Source: Terriglobia bacterium (GTDB lineage: Bacteria; Acidobacteriota; Terriglobia; 20CM-2-55-15). Taken from it: DNA of 64,000 nt. Positions 48,261 to 55,132 of the stretch are shown here, piece by piece. Under the pieces are notes generated by a model. That model did no database searches. It had not been told where the DNA came from and saw only the letters and a list, made by a program, of their open reading frames with translations. The position numbers and the translations under genes are program-made. Position 1 is the stretch's first letter; each line of letters starts with the position of its first letter. The stretch lies in assembly GCA_963664115.2 (NCBI GenBank), contig CAXWPJ010000012.1, positions 256,001-320,000 of the forward strand. Direction: 5' to 3'.

Positions 48261-48348
48261 CCAGCACGACAGTGCATATTACCCAGCACGACAGTGCATA
48301 TTACCCAGCACGACAGTGCATATTACCCAGCACGACAGTGCATATTAC
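48261..48348. repeat. Perfect tandem repeat, 4 x 22 bp (CCAGCACGACAGTGCATATTAC)
   Basis: Four identical contiguous units in the divergent ubiD/CHAT intergenic region. Confidence 0.97.
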
Positions 48349-48794
48349 AACGTAGCGCCAGAGCGCGACGGCTTTTCCGGAACCTAATTGAGGTCAAGCG
48401 TCACCTCCACTTCAGAGCGACCTCCGACGGCGGTGAGCGCTACTAAATCGCGATTTCGGCGAGGGTGCAACAAGCGCTTGGCATTTAATAAAGACACGCA
48501 GGCCATTTCCGGACTAATGCTCTGATCAACTCCTGCCGATATACCGACTAAGGGTATTTTCGGCCTGCACGAATCTGTGGGGATGCCTGTGTGGGACCAA
48601 AGCCCAGGGTGCGCACATATGCATATATATCAATTACATAGGAGAATTAATGGGCGCCAGAGCGCCCTCAGCAATAGCCCTAGGACTAAGCCGGTTTTTG
48701 GCACAGACGAATTTTTAGCGTTGCACCGGAATCGACGATGAAACAGAATGGAGCACCTTTCATGATGAAAGCAGCGAGATACACGGAGGGAACC

Positions 48795-51293
48795 GTGTCC
48801 AGCCCAGCACTTGAACTTGCGGAAAAGATCAGACAGACAGGACGTCGGTCACCGCAAGATCTCAATCCACTCATAGAACAAGCCGAAGAACTGGCTGCGA
48901 GCGCTACAGACGCGTTCACGCGTGCTGTCTCGATTCGAGCTGCTGGGAACGCGCATCAACTCCTGAACAATTTCACAGCCGCACTGGAGCGATACGATCA
49001 GGCAATCAAGCTCTTTGAAAGCACGAGCGATCAGGCTCAAGTCGGTCGCACCTTGCTGGCCAAAGTTGGCCTGCTGTTTTACCTCAGCCGCTTCGACGAA
49101 CTCTTCGAATGCGCCCGCGTCGCTCAGGGTCTTTTTGAGGACCAGAAAGACGAAGCAGCTCTCGCACGCCTGAGAGTGAACCTCGGCAACGCCTACCAAC
49201 GATTGGACCGGTATCACGAAGCACTGGACTGCTACGAAAAAGCCTTTCCGGTGTTGGAACGCCTTGACGACAGCGAAGGCCTTTTGGCGTCGTCGTTGAA
49301 CGCTGCCGTCGTGTTGACGATACTCCATCAGTTCGACCGGGCCGACGAGAAGTACAACCAGGCGTCGAACCTGGCCCAGGGTCTCGGCATGGATGCGATC
49401 GCGCTTCAGAGCCGATACAACCGAACATACCTGAGTTACCTGAAGGGCGACAGTGGTGTCGCTCTGCGCGGTATGCTCGCGCTCAAGAACGAATTCGAGC
49501 AAAAAGGTGACGACAACCACGTCTGCCTCTGCTGGCTGGACGAGGCCGAGATGCTCCTGGAATTGGGAGACCTTCCCGAATCGATCCAATCCGCCCGCGA
49601 GGCTCGTCGCCTGGGCAAGAAACTTGGCTTGAACTACGAAATTGGAAAATCTCTTCTGTTCGAGGCAGCCGCGTCATTGCGTACGGGCCAGGAAACTCAC
49701 GCCCAGGACCTACTGACCGATGCGATGAAACGCTTCGAGTCGGAAGGCAATAGCGTCTGGACAGCTGTATCTCGACTCCAGGCCGCTCTGTTCCGCGGGG
49801 AACAGGGCCAGATTCAGGCCCTGAGGGAGGCCACCAGCGCCCGGCAGTTGCTCGAAAGCAGCTCTCTACCGGACCGGTTAGCGCTCGCCGACATCGTCAT
49901 TGGCCGTATTCAGCGGGTGAGGGGCAACGCCAGCTGTGCCGTCGATTCGTTCGAATCCGCCGTGCGCCTGGCCAAGGAAAGCAAGTCCGAGTGGATGCAG
50001 TTCCATGCGGCGCACGAGCTGGGCGTGTCGCTATCGGGAACCGACACGAAGAAGAGCCGGATGCACGTCCAGAAGGCTGAAGCCATGCTCGATTCGCTGT
50101 GGCACAGGATCGGATCAGACGACCTCAAAATGGCTTTCCTGAACGATAGAGAAACCGTGTACAGCCACCTGATCACGAACGTCGCACCAATTTCGGTTGA
50201 TGAAGCCTTCCGCTTGTCCGAGCGGGCCCGCTCCAGAGTTCTCGTCGAGCGCCTTGCAGCCGATGGGGAGCGCGTGACCACAGAAGACATTCCAACCCGG
50301 CTGGACCCGGGCGAGACCATCGTTGAATACTTCATCTCCGGAAACGACGTTTACATCTTTGTCATCGACCGGAATGGATTGGAATGGGTGCATCGCCCCG
50401 GAATCGCAGCCGAAATGGAGCAGGAATGGACGCATCTGGAGCGTCATCTGGTCAGTTGCAGCGTCAAGTGGGAACAGCTGAGCCGGATTTCACAACATCT
50501 CGAACGCACGGCACACGTGCATCTCCGATCGCTTTACGATGGTCTGATTAAGCCTGTGCAGGATCACCTCGGCCGGAATCTCATCATCGTGCCCCACGGG
50601 TTCCTGCACGGCATCCCCTTTCATGCGCTTCACGACGGAAACGCATACCTTTCAGAACATCATTCGATTGTCTATAGCCCCAGCGCAACACTCTACGTGA
50701 CGCCACCGACCGAAGAACCCGACGGGCCACCCCTGTTTGTGGCGTTCTCGACTGATGCCGAAGAAGGCATTGTCAAAGAGGTGGAGCAAACGGCTAGAGG
50801 TTTCACAGACGCAACGGTTCTCGTCAACCCTACGGTGGACGAACTGAGAGATGAGATGAACCACTACCGGCCGCTGCTCCACATTGCGGGACATGCAGGC
50901 ATCGATCCGATTCGGGGATCCTTGTCGTGGCTGGAAACCTCGAACGGAAAACTCACGAGCCGGGATCTCATGGACATGCAGTTTCGAGCGGGTACCGTCG
51001 TAGTGACCGGCTGCCACACCGCACGGCGCAACATTTCTGCGGGAGACGAGTGGCTCGGACTGATGCGTGCCTTCTATCTTTCCGGAGCGCACACGATCGT
51101 CTCAGCCTACTGGGCGATCCGGGATGAATCGGCACAGCTGTTTTCGAAAACATTTTATAAACATTATGACGGCACAAACGCGTCGGAAGCGGTAACGGCC
51201 GCAAGCGATACGATTCGAAAAGCATCGCCGCACCCGTATTTCTGGGGCGGTTTTGGAACCTTCGCTCGCAAGCGAAGAGGAGATTCAAAATGA
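48795..51293 (+). CDS. TPR-CHAT (caspase HetF associated with TPR) cysteine protease
   Basis: N-terminal TPR-like helical repeats; SERARSR, IVEYF, IIVPHGFLHGIPFHAL, LHIAGHAG (His), VTGCHT (Cys), AYWAIRD and HPYFWGGF motifs. GTG at 48795 follows GGAGGG; an alternative ATG is at 48738. Confidence 0.92.
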   Translation: MSSPALELAEKIRQTGRRSPQDLNPLIEQAEELAASATDAFTRAVSIRAAGNAHQLLNNFTAALERYDQAIKLFESTSDQAQVGRTLLAKVGLLFYLSRFDELFECARVAQGLFEDQKDEAALARLRVNLGNAYQRLDRYHEALDCYEKAFPVLERLDDSEGLLASSLNAAVVLTILHQFDRADEKYNQASNLAQGLGMDAIALQSRYNRTYLSYLKGDSGVALRGMLALKNEFEQKGDDNHVCLCWLDEAEMLLELGDLPESIQSAREARRLGKKLGLNYEIGKSLLFEAAASLRTGQETHAQDLLTDAMKRFESEGNSVWTAVSRLQAALFRGEQGQIQALREATSARQLLESSSLPDRLALADIVIGRIQRVRGNASCAVDSFESAVRLAKESKSEWMQFHAAHELGVSLSGTDTKKSRMHVQKAEAMLDSLWHRIGSDDLKMAFLNDRETVYSHLITNVAPISVDEAFRLSERARSRVLVERLAADGERVTTEDIPTRLDPGETIVEYFISGNDVYIFVIDRNGLEWVHRPGIAAEMEQEWTHLERHLVSCSVKWEQLSRISQHLERTAHVHLRSLYDGLIKPVQDHLGRNLIIVPHGFLHGIPFHALHDGNAYLSEHHSIVYSPSATLYVTPPTEEPDGPPLFVAFSTDAEEGIVKEVEQTARGFTDATVLVNPTVDELRDEMNHYRPLLHIAGHAGIDPIRGSLSWLETSNGKLTSRDLMDMQFRAGTVVVTGCHTARRNISAGDEWLGLMRAFYLSGAHTIVSAYWAIRDESAQLFSKTFYKHYDGTNASEAVTAASDTIRKASPHPYFWGGFGTFARKRRGDSK

Positions 51294-51712
51294 AGCACGA
51301 CGTTGTCGAAATTCGAGGTTCATTGCTGTTCGATTCCTGGTTCGGCGAGATCCCCCGGGTACGTGAAACCGCATTGGAAGACCGCCATCTCATATACGAA
51401 GGTGGTGGCGTAATCCTCGATCTGCTGGTGAGACGGTCGAACGGCGATCCATGCCTTCACGTCGGAGGACAGGTTTTGCCCGACAACGATTCGCTTGAAA
51501 GCGTCGCAAATGTCCCGGTCATGATTCAAAGAGGACGCGAAGAAACCGCGACTCGGACGAATCCGGTCGGGGAGTTCATGTTTCACACCGGGTCGAACGG
51601 AGATTTCGACCTGACAATCCTTCTGCGCGACCAGCGCTTCGTCGTCCGGGGACTTTCCGGTAACGACCCGCGCGAGTGGCAGTTGGCTTATTCCACGGAT
51701 GGAGAACGTTAA
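51290..51712 (+). CDS. Small beta-rich hypothetical protein of the type found beside CHAT proteases
   Basis: ATGA overlap with the CHAT gene; LLFDSW, RHLIY, LDL, GQVL and TNPVGEFMF motifs. Confidence 0.75.
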   Translation: MKHDVVEIRGSLLFDSWFGEIPRVRETALEDRHLIYEGGGVILDLLVRRSNGDPCLHVGGQVLPDNDSLESVANVPVMIQRGREETATRTNPVGEFMFHTGSNGDFDLTILLRDQRFVVRGLSGNDPREWQLAYSTDGER

Positions 51713-51714
51713 CA

Positions 51715-53397
51715 ATGATGAAACGTACTTTACTAACGCTGCTAGTGAGCGCATGCCTAGTCTCTGGTGGTTTGGCGGCAGGCGCTCAGAACCTAATCGT
51801 CCAGGCCAAAGATGAGAAGACCATCAAACGGATCCAGAAGAAATACGGAGCTCAACTCCTGGGGCAGATCAATGGCCAGGACGGCCAGGGCATCTTCCAA
51901 ATTCAGATCGACGATAGCAAAAAAGGGGAAAAAGGCAAGTCCAGTAAGCAGATCAAAGGCCAGGACATCTCCAAAATTCAGATCGACGATGGCAAAAAAG
52001 GCAAAAAAGGTAAGTCCAGTAAGAGCACCAAGGAACTCGACAAGCTGATCAAAGAAATCCTGAATGAAAAAGGCATAGTCAGCGTTGAGCCGAACTATCC
52101 GCTCTCAGTCGACGCCGGTGTTGGTCCTGACTTGGAATGGTCGGTCATGTCCCTGTTCTGGAGCGTCATGTCGCTGTTCGGGGAAAAGACGCCGACCGAC
52201 TTCTACGGGACTGAGGTGATCGAAGGATACGCGAATCAGCCGGCTCTCGACGTCATCCATGCCTCCGACATTCGCTCTGTATCGACTGGCGCTGGCACAC
52301 GGGTCGCCTTCATCGACACCGGTGTCGATCCAGACCACCCTGCTCTGCGTCCCTGGATCGACGAAGGGATAGATCTGCTGGGAACGGGCTTGGCCTCGGA
52401 ATTGAGCGGCCTGGACTGGTCGGTCATGTCGCTGTTCGAAGACACGGTGCGCATCTTCAAGCGCGGGCTCGGCCTGGATTGGTCCGTCATGTCCTTGTTC
52501 CTCGAACACCTGGAAAAACTTGGACTGGATTGGTCCGTCATGTCTCTTTTTTCCGATCAGTTGCAGAAGCTCGGCGTCGACCTGGACTGGTCCGTCATGT
52601 CTCTCTTTTGGTCCGTCATGTCTCTCTTCTCCGACGACGTAGAAACACTCGATCTGGACTGGTCCGTCATGTCTCTCTTCTCTGAAGAAGTGGAGCAACT
52701 CAACCTCGATTGGTCGGTCATGTCACTGTTTGGCGATGCCGATGGGAACGCCGGAGGGGGGATGCCTGCAAAATTCGGTCATGGGACTCTCGTCGCCGGC
52801 CTGATCCACGCCGTGGCCCCTGAAGCCCAGCTGGTCCCCGTCCGTGCGTTTGACCCTTACAGCAACTCGACCCTGTTCTTGGCAACCGCTGCTGTATATG
52901 CGGCTGTTGACCTAGACGTCGACGTTATCAATATGAGCTTTTCGATCGGAACGGACTCCGCCGCTTTCCAGAGTGCCCTCAACTACGCTTGGTCCCAGGG
53001 CGTCACGCTGGTCGCTTCCGTCGGGAACGACGGCATCGATGCGGGCGACATTTACCCTGCAGCCTACCCCAAGGTAATCGGCGTCGCGGCTACGAATCTG
53101 GAGGACCAAATCACATCGTTTTCCAATTTCGGAAAGACTGTCGATGTTACGGCTCCCGGGGAGATCGTCTCCACCTATCCGGGAGGTTTGTATGCACGAG
53201 CCTCGGGAACGTCGTTCAGCGCGCCTATGGTCAGCGGATCAGTTGCTCTGCTCGCCTCGTTGGGTAAGAGAAACAAAGCCGCCGCACAAACAGTCGTGAA
53301 CACGGCCGACTCGGTCTACGAGTCCAATCCAGACCTCTTTAGACAAGCGCTCGGACAAGGCCGAGTCAATCTGTTGAACGCATTAGGTGTGAATTAG
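51715..53397 (+). CDS. Secreted S8 subtilisin-like protease containing nine WSVMSLF repeats
   Basis: Signal peptide MMKRTLL...AAGA; triad FIDTG / GHGT / GTSFS; oxyanion SVGN; VINMSF motif. Confidence 0.93.
   Translation: MMKRTLLTLLVSACLVSGGLAAGAQNLIVQAKDEKTIKRIQKKYGAQLLGQINGQDGQGIFQIQIDDSKKGEKGKSSKQIKGQDISKIQIDDGKKGKKGKSSKSTKELDKLIKEILNEKGIVSVEPNYPLSVDAGVGPDLEWSVMSLFWSVMSLFGEKTPTDFYGTEVIEGYANQPALDVIHASDIRSVSTGAGTRVAFIDTGVDPDHPALRPWIDEGIDLLGTGLASELSGLDWSVMSLFEDTVRIFKRGLGLDWSVMSLFLEHLEKLGLDWSVMSLFSDQLQKLGVDLDWSVMSLFWSVMSLFSDDVETLDLDWSVMSLFSEEVEQLNLDWSVMSLFGDADGNAGGGMPAKFGHGTLVAGLIHAVAPEAQLVPVRAFDPYSNSTLFLATAAVYAAVDLDVDVINMSFSIGTDSAAFQSALNYAWSQGVTLVASVGNDGIDAGDIYPAAYPKVIGVAATNLEDQITSFSNFGKTVDVTAPGEIVSTYPGGLYARASGTSFSAPMVSGSVALLASLGKRNKAAAQTVVNTADSVYESNPDLFRQALGQGRVNLLNALGVN
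52138..52731 (+). repeat. Nine in-frame 21-nt repeats encoding WSVMSLF
   Basis: Copies start at 52138, 52159, 52417, 52480, 52531, 52588, 52609, 52660 and 52711. Confidence 0.97.
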
Positions 53398-54492
53398 ATG
53401 CAAGCTAAGATGGCAATATCCAAATCGGAAGTCAGTCTGATCGGGCGCTTCGGGTACTCGGTTCTCGAAGCGCCGGACATCCGCTCGGTCGTGGCTGAAG
53501 CGCTCCGGATTCTACGGAGATTAACTCCGGCTAAGGAGGTAAGGGTTGTATATTATTCCGCATCACGCTGGAAAGAATGGCATGCGACCGGGCAGCAGGT
53601 CCGGGAATTCGACTATGACGAGTGGCCATCGCCCTCACCAGCCGCCGAAACTGTAAGGTTAGAAACGAGCAAGGACCAATACGGATTCGTCTCGATCAGT
53701 CCGGCGGCGCCAGACAACAGATGGGTCCTCGAGCTGATGGCACCCCATATTTCGGCCGCGCTGACCTTGAAGTCAGCCATTCGCAGGGCACAAAACACAG
53801 CGCAGTCGGAAACCGAGCTCGTGCGGATCACCTTGCGCGCTCGAGAGGATGAACGCCGCCGGATTACGCACGAACTCCATGACGATGTCGGCCAGACGAT
53901 CGCCGTGCTGAAGCTGAAACTCAAGGTCCTTCAGAACCGGATCCAGAAGAACGGATCCAATCCGGAAACGGTCGAGGAGTTGACCGAGGCGCGCAAGAGC
54001 GTCGGTTTACTCTTGTCGAAGATACGGGACGTCTCTCACACGCTATACCCCAGGATTCTGGACACGATGGGCTTTGTACCTGCTTTGCAGGAACTGGTCA
54101 GCCAGGTATCCACGCCGTCCGAAATCGATGCGCGTTGCACCGTTCGTGGAAAGCCGAGTCCCATGGACAAAGACACCACAGTTTCACTCTACCGCTGTTG
54201 CCAGGAGGCCATCAGCAACGCGATCCGTCACTCAGGAGCCTCAACACTTGAGGTTCGTATTTATTTTTCCGACACGCAGGTTCGGGCGGTCATCGAAGAC
54301 GACGGCCGGGGATTCGATCCCCGTCGCTTTTATGATTCCAGTGGCAAGCTGATGAGCTCCGGCTTCTGGACCGTTCGTCAAAGGATGAATGATGTGAATG
54401 GGTCCTTCCGGATCGGCACGGCCATAGGGAAGGGAACCTCGATTGAAATGATCGTACCTTTAAGGATGAAAGATGACGACAATGACCAGTGA
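53398..54492 (+). CDS. Soluble HisKA_3-type (NarX/DesK-like) sensor histidine kinase
   Basis: EDERRRITHELHDDVGQ H-box; QEAISNAIRHS N-box; EDDGRGFD; no TM segments; short GAF-like N-terminal region. Confidence 0.92.
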   Translation: MQAKMAISKSEVSLIGRFGYSVLEAPDIRSVVAEALRILRRLTPAKEVRVVYYSASRWKEWHATGQQVREFDYDEWPSPSPAAETVRLETSKDQYGFVSISPAAPDNRWVLELMAPHISAALTLKSAIRRAQNTAQSETELVRITLRAREDERRRITHELHDDVGQTIAVLKLKLKVLQNRIQKNGSNPETVEELTEARKSVGLLLSKIRDVSHTLYPRILDTMGFVPALQELVSQVSTPSEIDARCTVRGKPSPMDKDTTVSLYRCCQEAISNAIRHSGASTLEVRIYFSDTQVRAVIEDDGRGFDPRRFYDSSGKLMSSGFWTVRQRMNDVNGSFRIGTAIGKGTSIEMIVPLRMKDDDNDQ

Positions 54493-55132
54493 AAAAATAC
54501 GCCTGTTGATCGCCGACGATCACACGATTCTGAGACAGGGACTTCGCCGCATTCTGGAAGAAGAGCACGACATGGAAGTTGTTGGAGAAGCGGCGACCGG
54601 GACCGATGCGGTCACCCTGGCCGAGGAACTCCAACCCGACATCGTCATCATGGATATTTCGATGCCGGGCCAGAACGGGATCGAGAGTACCCGTCAGATC
54701 TCGATGCAAGGTGACTCGCGGGTCCTGGTTTTGACGGTTCATCTTGAACGACAGGTGATCGCCAACGCGGTGACTGCCGGTGCCTCGGGATACCTCCTGA
54801 AGGATTCGCTCGACGATCAGTTGCTGACAGCCGTGCGCACGATCCATGAAGGGGGGGCCGTGTTCTCCCCGGACGTGACCAAAATTCTTGCCAATCTCGA
54901 ACCCACCGACAAAGCATCAGAGCGCACTCTGGATCTGTTAACACCTCGAGAAAAGGAAGTGTTCTATCTCCTGGCGGACGGCAAGGCCTCGGCCGCAATC
55001 GCCGACCTGTTGTTCGTCAGCCCCAAAACCATCCATACCCACCGGCAACACATCATGGACAAGCTCGGGTTACGGACGATCGGAGAGTTGATCCGTTACG
55101 CCATTCGCGAAGGCCTGGTCAACGACGCCTGA
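54473..55132 (+). CDS. NarL/LuxR-family response regulator
   Basis: LIADDH, MDISMP (phospho-Asp) and GYLLK motifs; LTPREKEV...SPKTIHTHRQHIMDKL HTH. Alternative start at 54482. Confidence 0.95.
   Translation: MTTMTSEKIRLLIADDHTILRQGLRRILEEEHDMEVVGEAATGTDAVTLAEELQPDIVIMDISMPGQNGIESTRQISMQGDSRVLVLTVHLERQVIANAVTAGASGYLLKDSLDDQLLTAVRTIHEGGAVFSPDVTKILANLEPTDKASERTLDLLTPREKEVFYLLADGKASAAIADLLFVSPKTIHTHRQHIMDKLGLRTIGELIRYAIREGLVNDA

Follow-up and report, generated by a model that had tools for sequence, protein, structure and literature searches.

An exact heptapeptide repeated within a Terriglobia subtilase: a proposed peptide signal encoded in its own protease

Why should a protease carry the same seven amino acids nine times over? 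The question is raised by a gene found in a 64,000-nucleotide stretch of the genome of a Terriglobia bacterium (Acidobacteriota; contig CAXWPJ010000012.1, positions 256,001 to 320,000), referred to here as the window. A single open reading frame (ORF) of this stretch, 51715-53397 on the forward strand, encodes a 560-residue protease of family S8 and contains nine exact copies of the sequence WSVMSLF. The copies start at nucleotides 52138, 52159, 52417, 52480, 52531, 52588, 52609, 52660 and 52711, the last base being 52731, i.e. at residues 142, 149, 235, 256, 273, 292, 299, 316 and 333 of the protein. Comparison of sequences indicates that the repeat is real, under selection and family-wide, and a peptide signal encoded within the protease itself is the most likely reading of it.

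A reading of this DNA made without any database search (the sequence-only reading) had described nine invariant copies whose DNA varies only synonymously; this is confirmed, every codon variant that it listed being present, and the Val codon is GTC in all copies. The nine copies exist in eight distinct DNA versions, with a mean of 3.1 differences over 21 nucleotides, and 96 of the 252 codon pairs between copies differ, each time synonymously (the proportions of synonymous and non-synonymous differences, pS and pN, are 0.71 and 0). With synonymous sites making up 21% of the core, the neutral probability that 8-10 independent changes would all be synonymous is about 4e-6 to 2e-7. Two internal controls are provided by the same gene. 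The spacers between copies, which had been said to diverge freely, do so: they show 64 non-synonymous vs 10 synonymous differences in 80 codon pairs. The other control is a recent 75-bp duplication in the pro-domain (51883-51948 / 51958-52023), Lys/Gly-rich and modelled with a low pLDDT (predicted local distance difference test), which has accumulated five non-synonymous and two synonymous changes. When the protein was shuffled 2000 times, no 7-mer occurred more than twice, and WSVMSLF is the most repeated 7-mer genome-wide (open frames of at least 200 residues; 7-mers with at least four different residues). With pN at 0 and controls that change freely, the codon pattern argues that the exact heptapeptide is under purifying selection, as had been proposed.

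The proposal had, in addition, opposed selection to recent slippage, and this part stands less firmly. Pure recent slippage is ruled out by the synonymous-only differences and by the freely changing controls. But copies 5-8 are only 0-2 nucleotides apart, so that recent duplication or conversion has also occurred locally, alongside selection, and copy number varies from 4 to 12 among close relatives. The second copy at the junction of pro- and mature domains is instructive: its Ser codon is AGC, both in the window and in relatives with a Gln-type motif, whose insert copies use TCN, and this copy was therefore not overwritten wholesale; it has the same Trp as the insert copies, which a short conversion tract could also explain. 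An assembly artefact was ruled out, the region being covered by single contigs of two sequencing runs from two studies, X5 (52152-53423) and X7 (52138-53423), with zero differences. Two RNA runs gave only small shares (0.12 and 0.05) and few short contigs, i.e. no evidence of transcription, and a promoter scan, with no sigma-70-like site vs 2.6 expected, was uninformative.

Where the copies lie in the protein matters for what they might do. The product is an S8 subtilase (Pfam Peptidase_S8, 1.7e-38, 133 bits vs a cut-off of 21.8) with a predicted signal peptide (about residues 1-24; N-terminal hydropathy of 1.97), a pro-domain and a catalytic domain in which Asp201, His356, Asn438 (oxyanion) and Ser500 are intact. 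AlphaFold2 models the pro- and catalytic domains with confidence, in a fold that matches thermitase and unprocessed pro-subtilisin E; residues 134-150, 251-261, 276-279, 282-284 and 286-347 have a pLDDT below 50, which for the array is weak evidence as the model is built on 84 aligned sequences only. Subtilases self-cleave at the junction of pro- and mature domains, and this is where copies 1 and 2 stand in tandem (residues 142-155; 52138..52179), ending 6-9 residues ahead of the position that corresponds, by extrapolation from an alignment, to the first mature residue of AK.1 protease and thermitase. Copies 3-9 (residues 235-339; 52417..52731) occupy an insert, or loop, that separates the catalytic Asp from the catalytic His; their period is for the most part 17 residues, with one tandem pair, and Leu-Asp precedes every non-tandem copy.

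Is this a peculiarity of one gene? Alignment of homologues, suggested by the sequence-only reading as a check, revealed that they carry repeats of their own at the same two places. Out of 184 distinct S8 homologues in which both landmarks were present, 156 contain a repeated motif, and there are 57 different dominant motifs, with a distinct 7- or 8-mer for each acidobacterial lineage; 109 of the 156 proteins have a copy at the junction. Invariance holds across the family at the level of copies, 661 out of 761 being exact, but less so at the level of proteins, since all copies are identical in only 101 of the 156. The case for purifying selection extends to the homologues: every one of the 45 locus arrays with at least four identical copies contains several DNA versions. 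A direct tandem period of 8 was found in 107 of the 184 inserts, of 7 in seven and of 10 in one, with none in 69, and spacer-free runs reach seven copies. Among new cluster representatives (50% identity), an exact repeat of at least seven residues is present in 86 of the 114 with both landmarks; another 26 lacked a landmark and were left unscored. One motif, QRTRAILG, is common to two S8 paralogue clades that have diverged although their genes are neighbours, which is a single event; the S8 tree used was a quick version. Genomes with tandem cassettes often mix two variants in one S8, QSTMSLF with QSVMSLF or QSTMFLF (loci L022, L023, L092 and L093), possibly through cross-talk or conversion between paralogues. 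As to a stand-alone precursor, the motif occurs in the genome only in the S8 gene, no copy lies outside S8 genes in 63 loci, and a search for shorter proteins with the motif gave two matches, both pieces of S8. Finally, 35 viral loci encode S8 relatives, among which a check of the + strand found none with such a repeat.

The edges of the motif suggest how it might be released. For 47 of the 184 proteins (those with at least four copies, a tandem pair and at least three runs), the register was set from tandem period and invariance alone, with no assumption about Leu, identity within the unit being partly by construction; the register behind the family-wide motif counts had required Leu or Val near the edge, and the Leu counts are therefore taken from these 47 proteins. 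The penultimate residue of the motif is Leu in 45 of these 47 proteins, and the residue two before the run is Leu or Val in 222 out of 238 cases, the background of Leu being 15%. At the position directly preceding the motif, different members of the family have D, N, S, A or V. All nine copies of the window fit the pattern of Leu at P2 at both edges; a single Leu-x specificity would therefore suffice to cleave at either end and to release the peptide without flanks, from tandem as well as from spaced copies.

The neighbourhood provides candidates for the remaining steps. Five genes on the forward strand follow one another in a conserved order, namely TPR-CHAT protease, small partner ORF, S8, soluble kinase and regulator, and because they abut or overlap we infer that they form one operon. 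The TPR-CHAT gene (48738..51293) encodes a caspase-like cysteine protease of 851 residues, or 842 from the Met at 48765 (Pfam CHAT, 1e-40, and TPR_12). The small partner (51290..51712; 140 residues) gave no Pfam or NCBIfam match and has homologues in related loci (59 out of 70), with a conserved hydrophobic-Arg site in 71 of 77 sequences; in loci that carry a sigma factor gene (sigma-type) it is 200-230 residues long and has an extra N-terminal Cys/His domain resembling zinc anti-sigma factors. A CarboxypepD_reg-like match, below cut-off, was obtained only for paralogues and homologues of the small protein, including the genome's own paralogue. Downstream of S8 come a soluble histidine kinase (53398..54492; GAF-like N-terminus, HisKA_3 and HATPase_c by Pfam, no transmembrane segment found), whose N-terminus has GAF look-alikes in the Atlas at 0.90-0.91, a lead only, and a NarL/LuxR-type response regulator (54473..55132; Pfam Response_reg and GerE). 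No sigma gene is present in the window cassette. In some related loci, a second paralogue of the small protein, together with another response regulator, follows the cassette (L021:11506-12559, L026:10745-11776 and L092:2361-3390), and from this pairing one may suspect that the small protein and the regulator are linked directly. Upstream of the cassette, four perfect copies of a 22-bp unit lie between genes (48261-48348); contigs of two runs skip 44 bases there, reflecting either copy-number variation or unresolved assembly.

The candidate receptor is the TPR-CHAT protein, which consists of about 11 helical hairpins followed by the CHAT domain. The catalytic dyad His710/Cys750 (50892-50894 and 51012-51014) is intact, and both residues are invariant in 114 sequences; no signal or transmembrane segment was found, the highest 19-residue hydropathy being 1.43. 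The AlphaFold2 model has a mean pLDDT of 90, with Csx29, separase and DdvA as the nearest folds. On successive TPR helices there is a ladder of Asn139, Asn179 and Asn219 (49179..49421), flanked by conserved Arg135/Arg146 and Glu262/266/292. The ladder residues are conserved at 92-100% in the clade of kinase-type loci and at 78-96% in a distant group, the two clades being about 28% identical. Because RRNPP receptors bind their peptide through conserved Asn residues, the ladder is, by analogy, a predicted peptide groove. The TPR profile also matches NprR (3e-9) and RapJ (2e-8), among many TPR proteins and ranked below generic TPRs.

If the TPR region reads the peptide, the two might be expected to change together. 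In 19 dereplicated sigma-type loci, motif similarity correlates with that of TPR residues 90-290 with a rho of 0.56, vs 0.27 for the distal TPR, 0.35 for the CHAT domain and 0.44 for the S8 catalytic half, and residues 90-290 were the best correlate of the motif in 472 of 500 subsamples. This covariation fits peptide recognition, but in a suggestive manner only. There were 49 S8-CHAT pairs, one of which was dropped by the landmark filter and 13 of which were matched only by the equal length of the parent record. A search for diagnostic CHAT columns distinguishing W from Q or T from V peptides was not used, with only eight loci, confounded with ancestry.

We estimate at roughly 60% the probability that the nine copies of WSVMSLF are signal peptides which S8 releases from itself and which are imported, activate TPR-CHAT and change transcription. 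S8 would be exported via its predicted signal and would cleave itself at Leu-x sites, freeing exactly WSVMSLF (MH+ 869.42), with a yield of at most nine heptapeptides from each molecule. Return to the cytoplasm would follow, here via a general importer, which is proposed since no dedicated importer is adjacent. The peptide would then bind the TPR groove and activate the CHAT protease, which would in turn cut the small partner; the hydrophobic-Arg site conserved there is a possible target, and a cut after Arg25 is predicted. A transcriptional response would result from sigma release or, in the window, through the kinase and the regulator. Such a signal would either pass between cells or report on the cell's own envelope.

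How general this arrangement may be can be judged from 70 related loci, almost all of which come from records that carry the name Acidobacteriota; several of them share one genome and are thus not independent. A CHAT gene is found in 48, a kinase in 11 and a sigma-like gene in 27, a few of the last being weak, and the five-gene unit is tandemly repeated in several relatives. Sampling of 121 genomes across the phylum detected the TPR-CHAT subfamily of the window in 11. Sigma-type cassettes have a dedicated importer of the family-5 peptide type: SBP_bac_5 binding proteins that form a clade of their own occur in the flanks of 28 of the 70 loci, mostly just upstream and with a permease. The genome studied here has a second cassette without S8 (G000:C9:412182-418783, L111, reverse strand), which encodes a sigma factor of the extracytoplasmic function (ECF) type, an anti-sigma-like protein with an HxxxCxxC motif, a 952-residue TPR-CHAT protein and two oligopeptide-ABC ATPases; it may be an orphan receptor. 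This cassette sits ahead of genes resembling tgt and secD/secF.

Several observations weigh against a self-released signal read by TPR-CHAT. For the window, the model is weakest at import, for which a dedicated importer is missing, and at the coupling to the kinase: none of the 11 kinase-type loci, the type to which the window belongs, has a dedicated SBP_bac_5 importer, and the genome has no orthologue of that clade (best score 140 bits vs 743-889 for full-length cassette proteins left out of profile building); it has four other family-5 binding proteins. The partner in the window has no sigma-binding domain, a gap in the proposed route to the kinase. A peptide of 868 Da may not cross the outer membrane freely, and Val3 of the core could itself act as P2 and split the peptide. 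A CHAT gene is lacking in the flank examined of 22 of the 70 loci (some flanks being incomplete), and variant copies exist in 55 of the 156 proteins with repeats. As for the receptor, the best matches of the TPR profile among solved structures are designed TPRs, LGN/Pins and kinesin light chain, and Asn at the ladder position is common in bacterial TPRs. No motif covariation was seen in the 11 kinase-type loci with 8-mers (rho 0.02-0.04 in all regions), and the pairs in the covariation analysis are not phylogenetically independent, the statistic ignoring kinship. What the sequences show is the selection, the catalytic residues, the gene order and the edge pattern; peptide release and TPR binding are predicted.

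Could the copies serve the protease itself? They might be extra copies of its autoprocessing site, placed beside the active site as loops that act as bait or timer and so delay or tune activation, the fragments having no further role. One sequence would then account for both the junction and the loop before the catalytic His, and a Met at P4 with a Phe at P1 is known from textbooks to suit subtilisins. Yet invariance spans 7-8 residues, beyond the usual reach of subtilase subsites, and 47 of the 156 proteins keep the array without any junction copy. In 30 loci, moreover, motif similarity does not follow that of the S8 catalytic half when CHAT similarity is controlled for (partial r of -0.08, vs 0.43 the other way round), with the caveat that the regions differ in length. 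Since such bait loops would also leave the importer and the TPR-CHAT gene unexplained, we hold this possibility to be rather unlikely. A different role within the intact protein, that of docking or cleavage motifs read by TPR-CHAT or the kinase upon mis-localization or lysis, with no free peptide, would fit the TPR covariation too. It would also give a meaning to the x-Leu-Asp/Glu found before non-tandem copies and to the Asp-Leu-Asp before copies 6 and 8, which is near the IDLD craspase site mentioned in a passage of PMC11506125. However, 92 of 99 full-length S8 homologues have a hydrophobic N-terminal segment and CHAT has none, the importer implies a small ligand, and the variability of the residue just before the motif is difficult to reconcile with docking; we consider this improbable.

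That the repeats are a structural element kept in the mature enzyme (a helical bundle, a solenoid or an amyloid-like assembly), the outcome that the sequence-only reading opposed to its own, has in its favour a strongly hydrophobic core and the 17-residue units, modelled as helices in the clade of the window. Against this, a single array combines periods of 7, 17 and 21, copies also occur outside the array, copy number changes from 4 to 12 in close relatives, and structural repeats normally tolerate conservative changes; the pLDDT, below 50 across most of the array, points the same way, weakly given the 84 sequences. A structural role is accordingly very improbable. The analogy with cyanobactins and other ribosomally synthesized and post-translationally modified peptides (RiPPs), made in the sequence-only reading, is not supported. 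Here the cores would mature into a modified or cyclic product with S8 as its own macrocyclase, for which the multi-core layout and the existence of S8 macrocyclases such as PatG could be invoked. But neither the neighbour families that recur across 90 loci nor the 72 neighbours that were scanned include a tailoring enzyme, the neighbours are import and signalling genes, and the PatA/PatG model TIGR03895 scores 66 bits vs a cut-off of 421, which excludes membership of a cyanobactin or RiPP cluster and makes such a product hardly credible. In yeast alpha-factor and in cyanobactin PatE, several identical cores are held by selection between freer spacers; the present cores differ from both in lying inside a protease, with no tailoring enzymes, with Leu-x at both edges and with no dibasic or AYDG-type flanks. 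As an analogy, that of a pheromone appears to fit better than that of a cyanobactin.

Related loci show some further features. In sigma-type cassettes, a gene with an HD domain (HD_5, HD-GYP-like) is often found 3′ of S8 (L028:9327-10013 and 15 other loci). One clade has a conserved Cys-containing ORF of about 150 residues after S8 (L082:3041-3505, L034:9185-9658 and related loci, 16), which gave no Pfam match in the one copy scanned. S8 or CHAT genes are split over two frames in some relatives (L026:7200-9268, L022:3568-5315 and L026:4200-6781), through assembly error or decay. Elsewhere in the genome, an unrelated TPR-CHAT gene (G000:C12:384060-391225) adjoins a large ORF resembling an exported protein of the filamentous-haemagglutinin type.

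Peptide signalling through self-release and re-import would resemble, as far as can be told from genes, that of RRNPP(A) systems (Rap-Phr, NprR-NprX, PlcR-PapR, AimR-AimP). In these, according to passages of PMC11343458, a peptide of 5-10 residues is cut from an exported precursor, matured outside the cytoplasm and re-imported by an oligopeptide permease, and propeptides may hold 1-4 copies; a passage of PMC6458997 adds that the receptors bind the peptide backbone in a TPR groove by conserved Asn. There are differences on several points: here the protease that does the processing would also be the precursor, with as many as 12 copies and no stand-alone propeptide gene; the TPR is fused to a C-terminal CHAT protease, with no match to any helix-turn-helix (HTH) family and no Rap domain; the output is a sigma/anti-sigma or a two-component pair; and the hosts are Acidobacteriota instead of Bacillota. 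Membership of RRNPP(A) was rejected, for want of an HTH or Rap effector domain and of a stand-alone propeptide. Type III-E craspase, with Csx29, Csx30 and CASP-sigma, is another relative in architecture: as presented in part of PMC10028731, its allosterically gated TPR-CHAT protease Csx29 cleaves an anti-sigma in its C-terminal domain. Csx29 and DdvA are, as said, among the nearest folds of the window protein, but the trigger would here be a peptide instead of a target RNA, and DdvA is a membrane-spanning anti-sigma. Craspase itself was rejected, the Csx29 model NF041237 scoring 67 bits vs a cut-off of 300, with no Cas genes among recurrent neighbours.

The closest precedent for the neighbourhood is ECF54, which reportedly originates from Huang et al. 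2015. It is described, in passages of PMC7826278 and PMC8999054, as a 100% actinobacterial group in which an ECF sigma gene lies near genes for a subtilase, a carboxypeptidase-regulatory-like protein and a TPR-CHAT protein, with a stated lack of anti-sigma factor and a proposed regulation by proteolysis. The same three proteins come together in the cassettes studied here; the window cassette has a kinase and a regulator instead of a sigma factor, the ECF group of the sigma-like genes in the 27 loci was not assigned, and the passages on ECF54 name no repeated peptide and no importer. No description of repeats in S8 proteins was found in open-licence literature, subscription papers not being covered.

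The gene neighbourhood is thus already in print; the self-encoded repeat signal, if true, would add to bacterial peptide signalling a form that has not been described. Going further, one may tentatively think of a class of peptide quorum sensing in Acidobacteriota, a possibility to which we give somewhat less than even odds, in which precursor and processing enzyme are one protein, dozens of lineages each have their own dialect, and a peptide-gated caspase-like receptor plugs into an ECF sigma or a two-component pair; cassettes devoid of S8 would then eavesdrop on the peptides of other cells. About the large group of TPR-CHAT proteases little is known, according to PMC11506125, and a concrete candidate ligand is now proposed for them, as is an input for ECF54-like modules. 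The sequence of the ligand can be read directly from each genome, so that a single synthetic heptapeptide and two purified proteins would be enough to test the model. If it is true, orthogonal peptide-switched proteases could be drawn from the dozens of pairs of peptide and protease that occur in nature, and cytoplasmic peptide signalling would extend to a major, mostly uncultured phylum.
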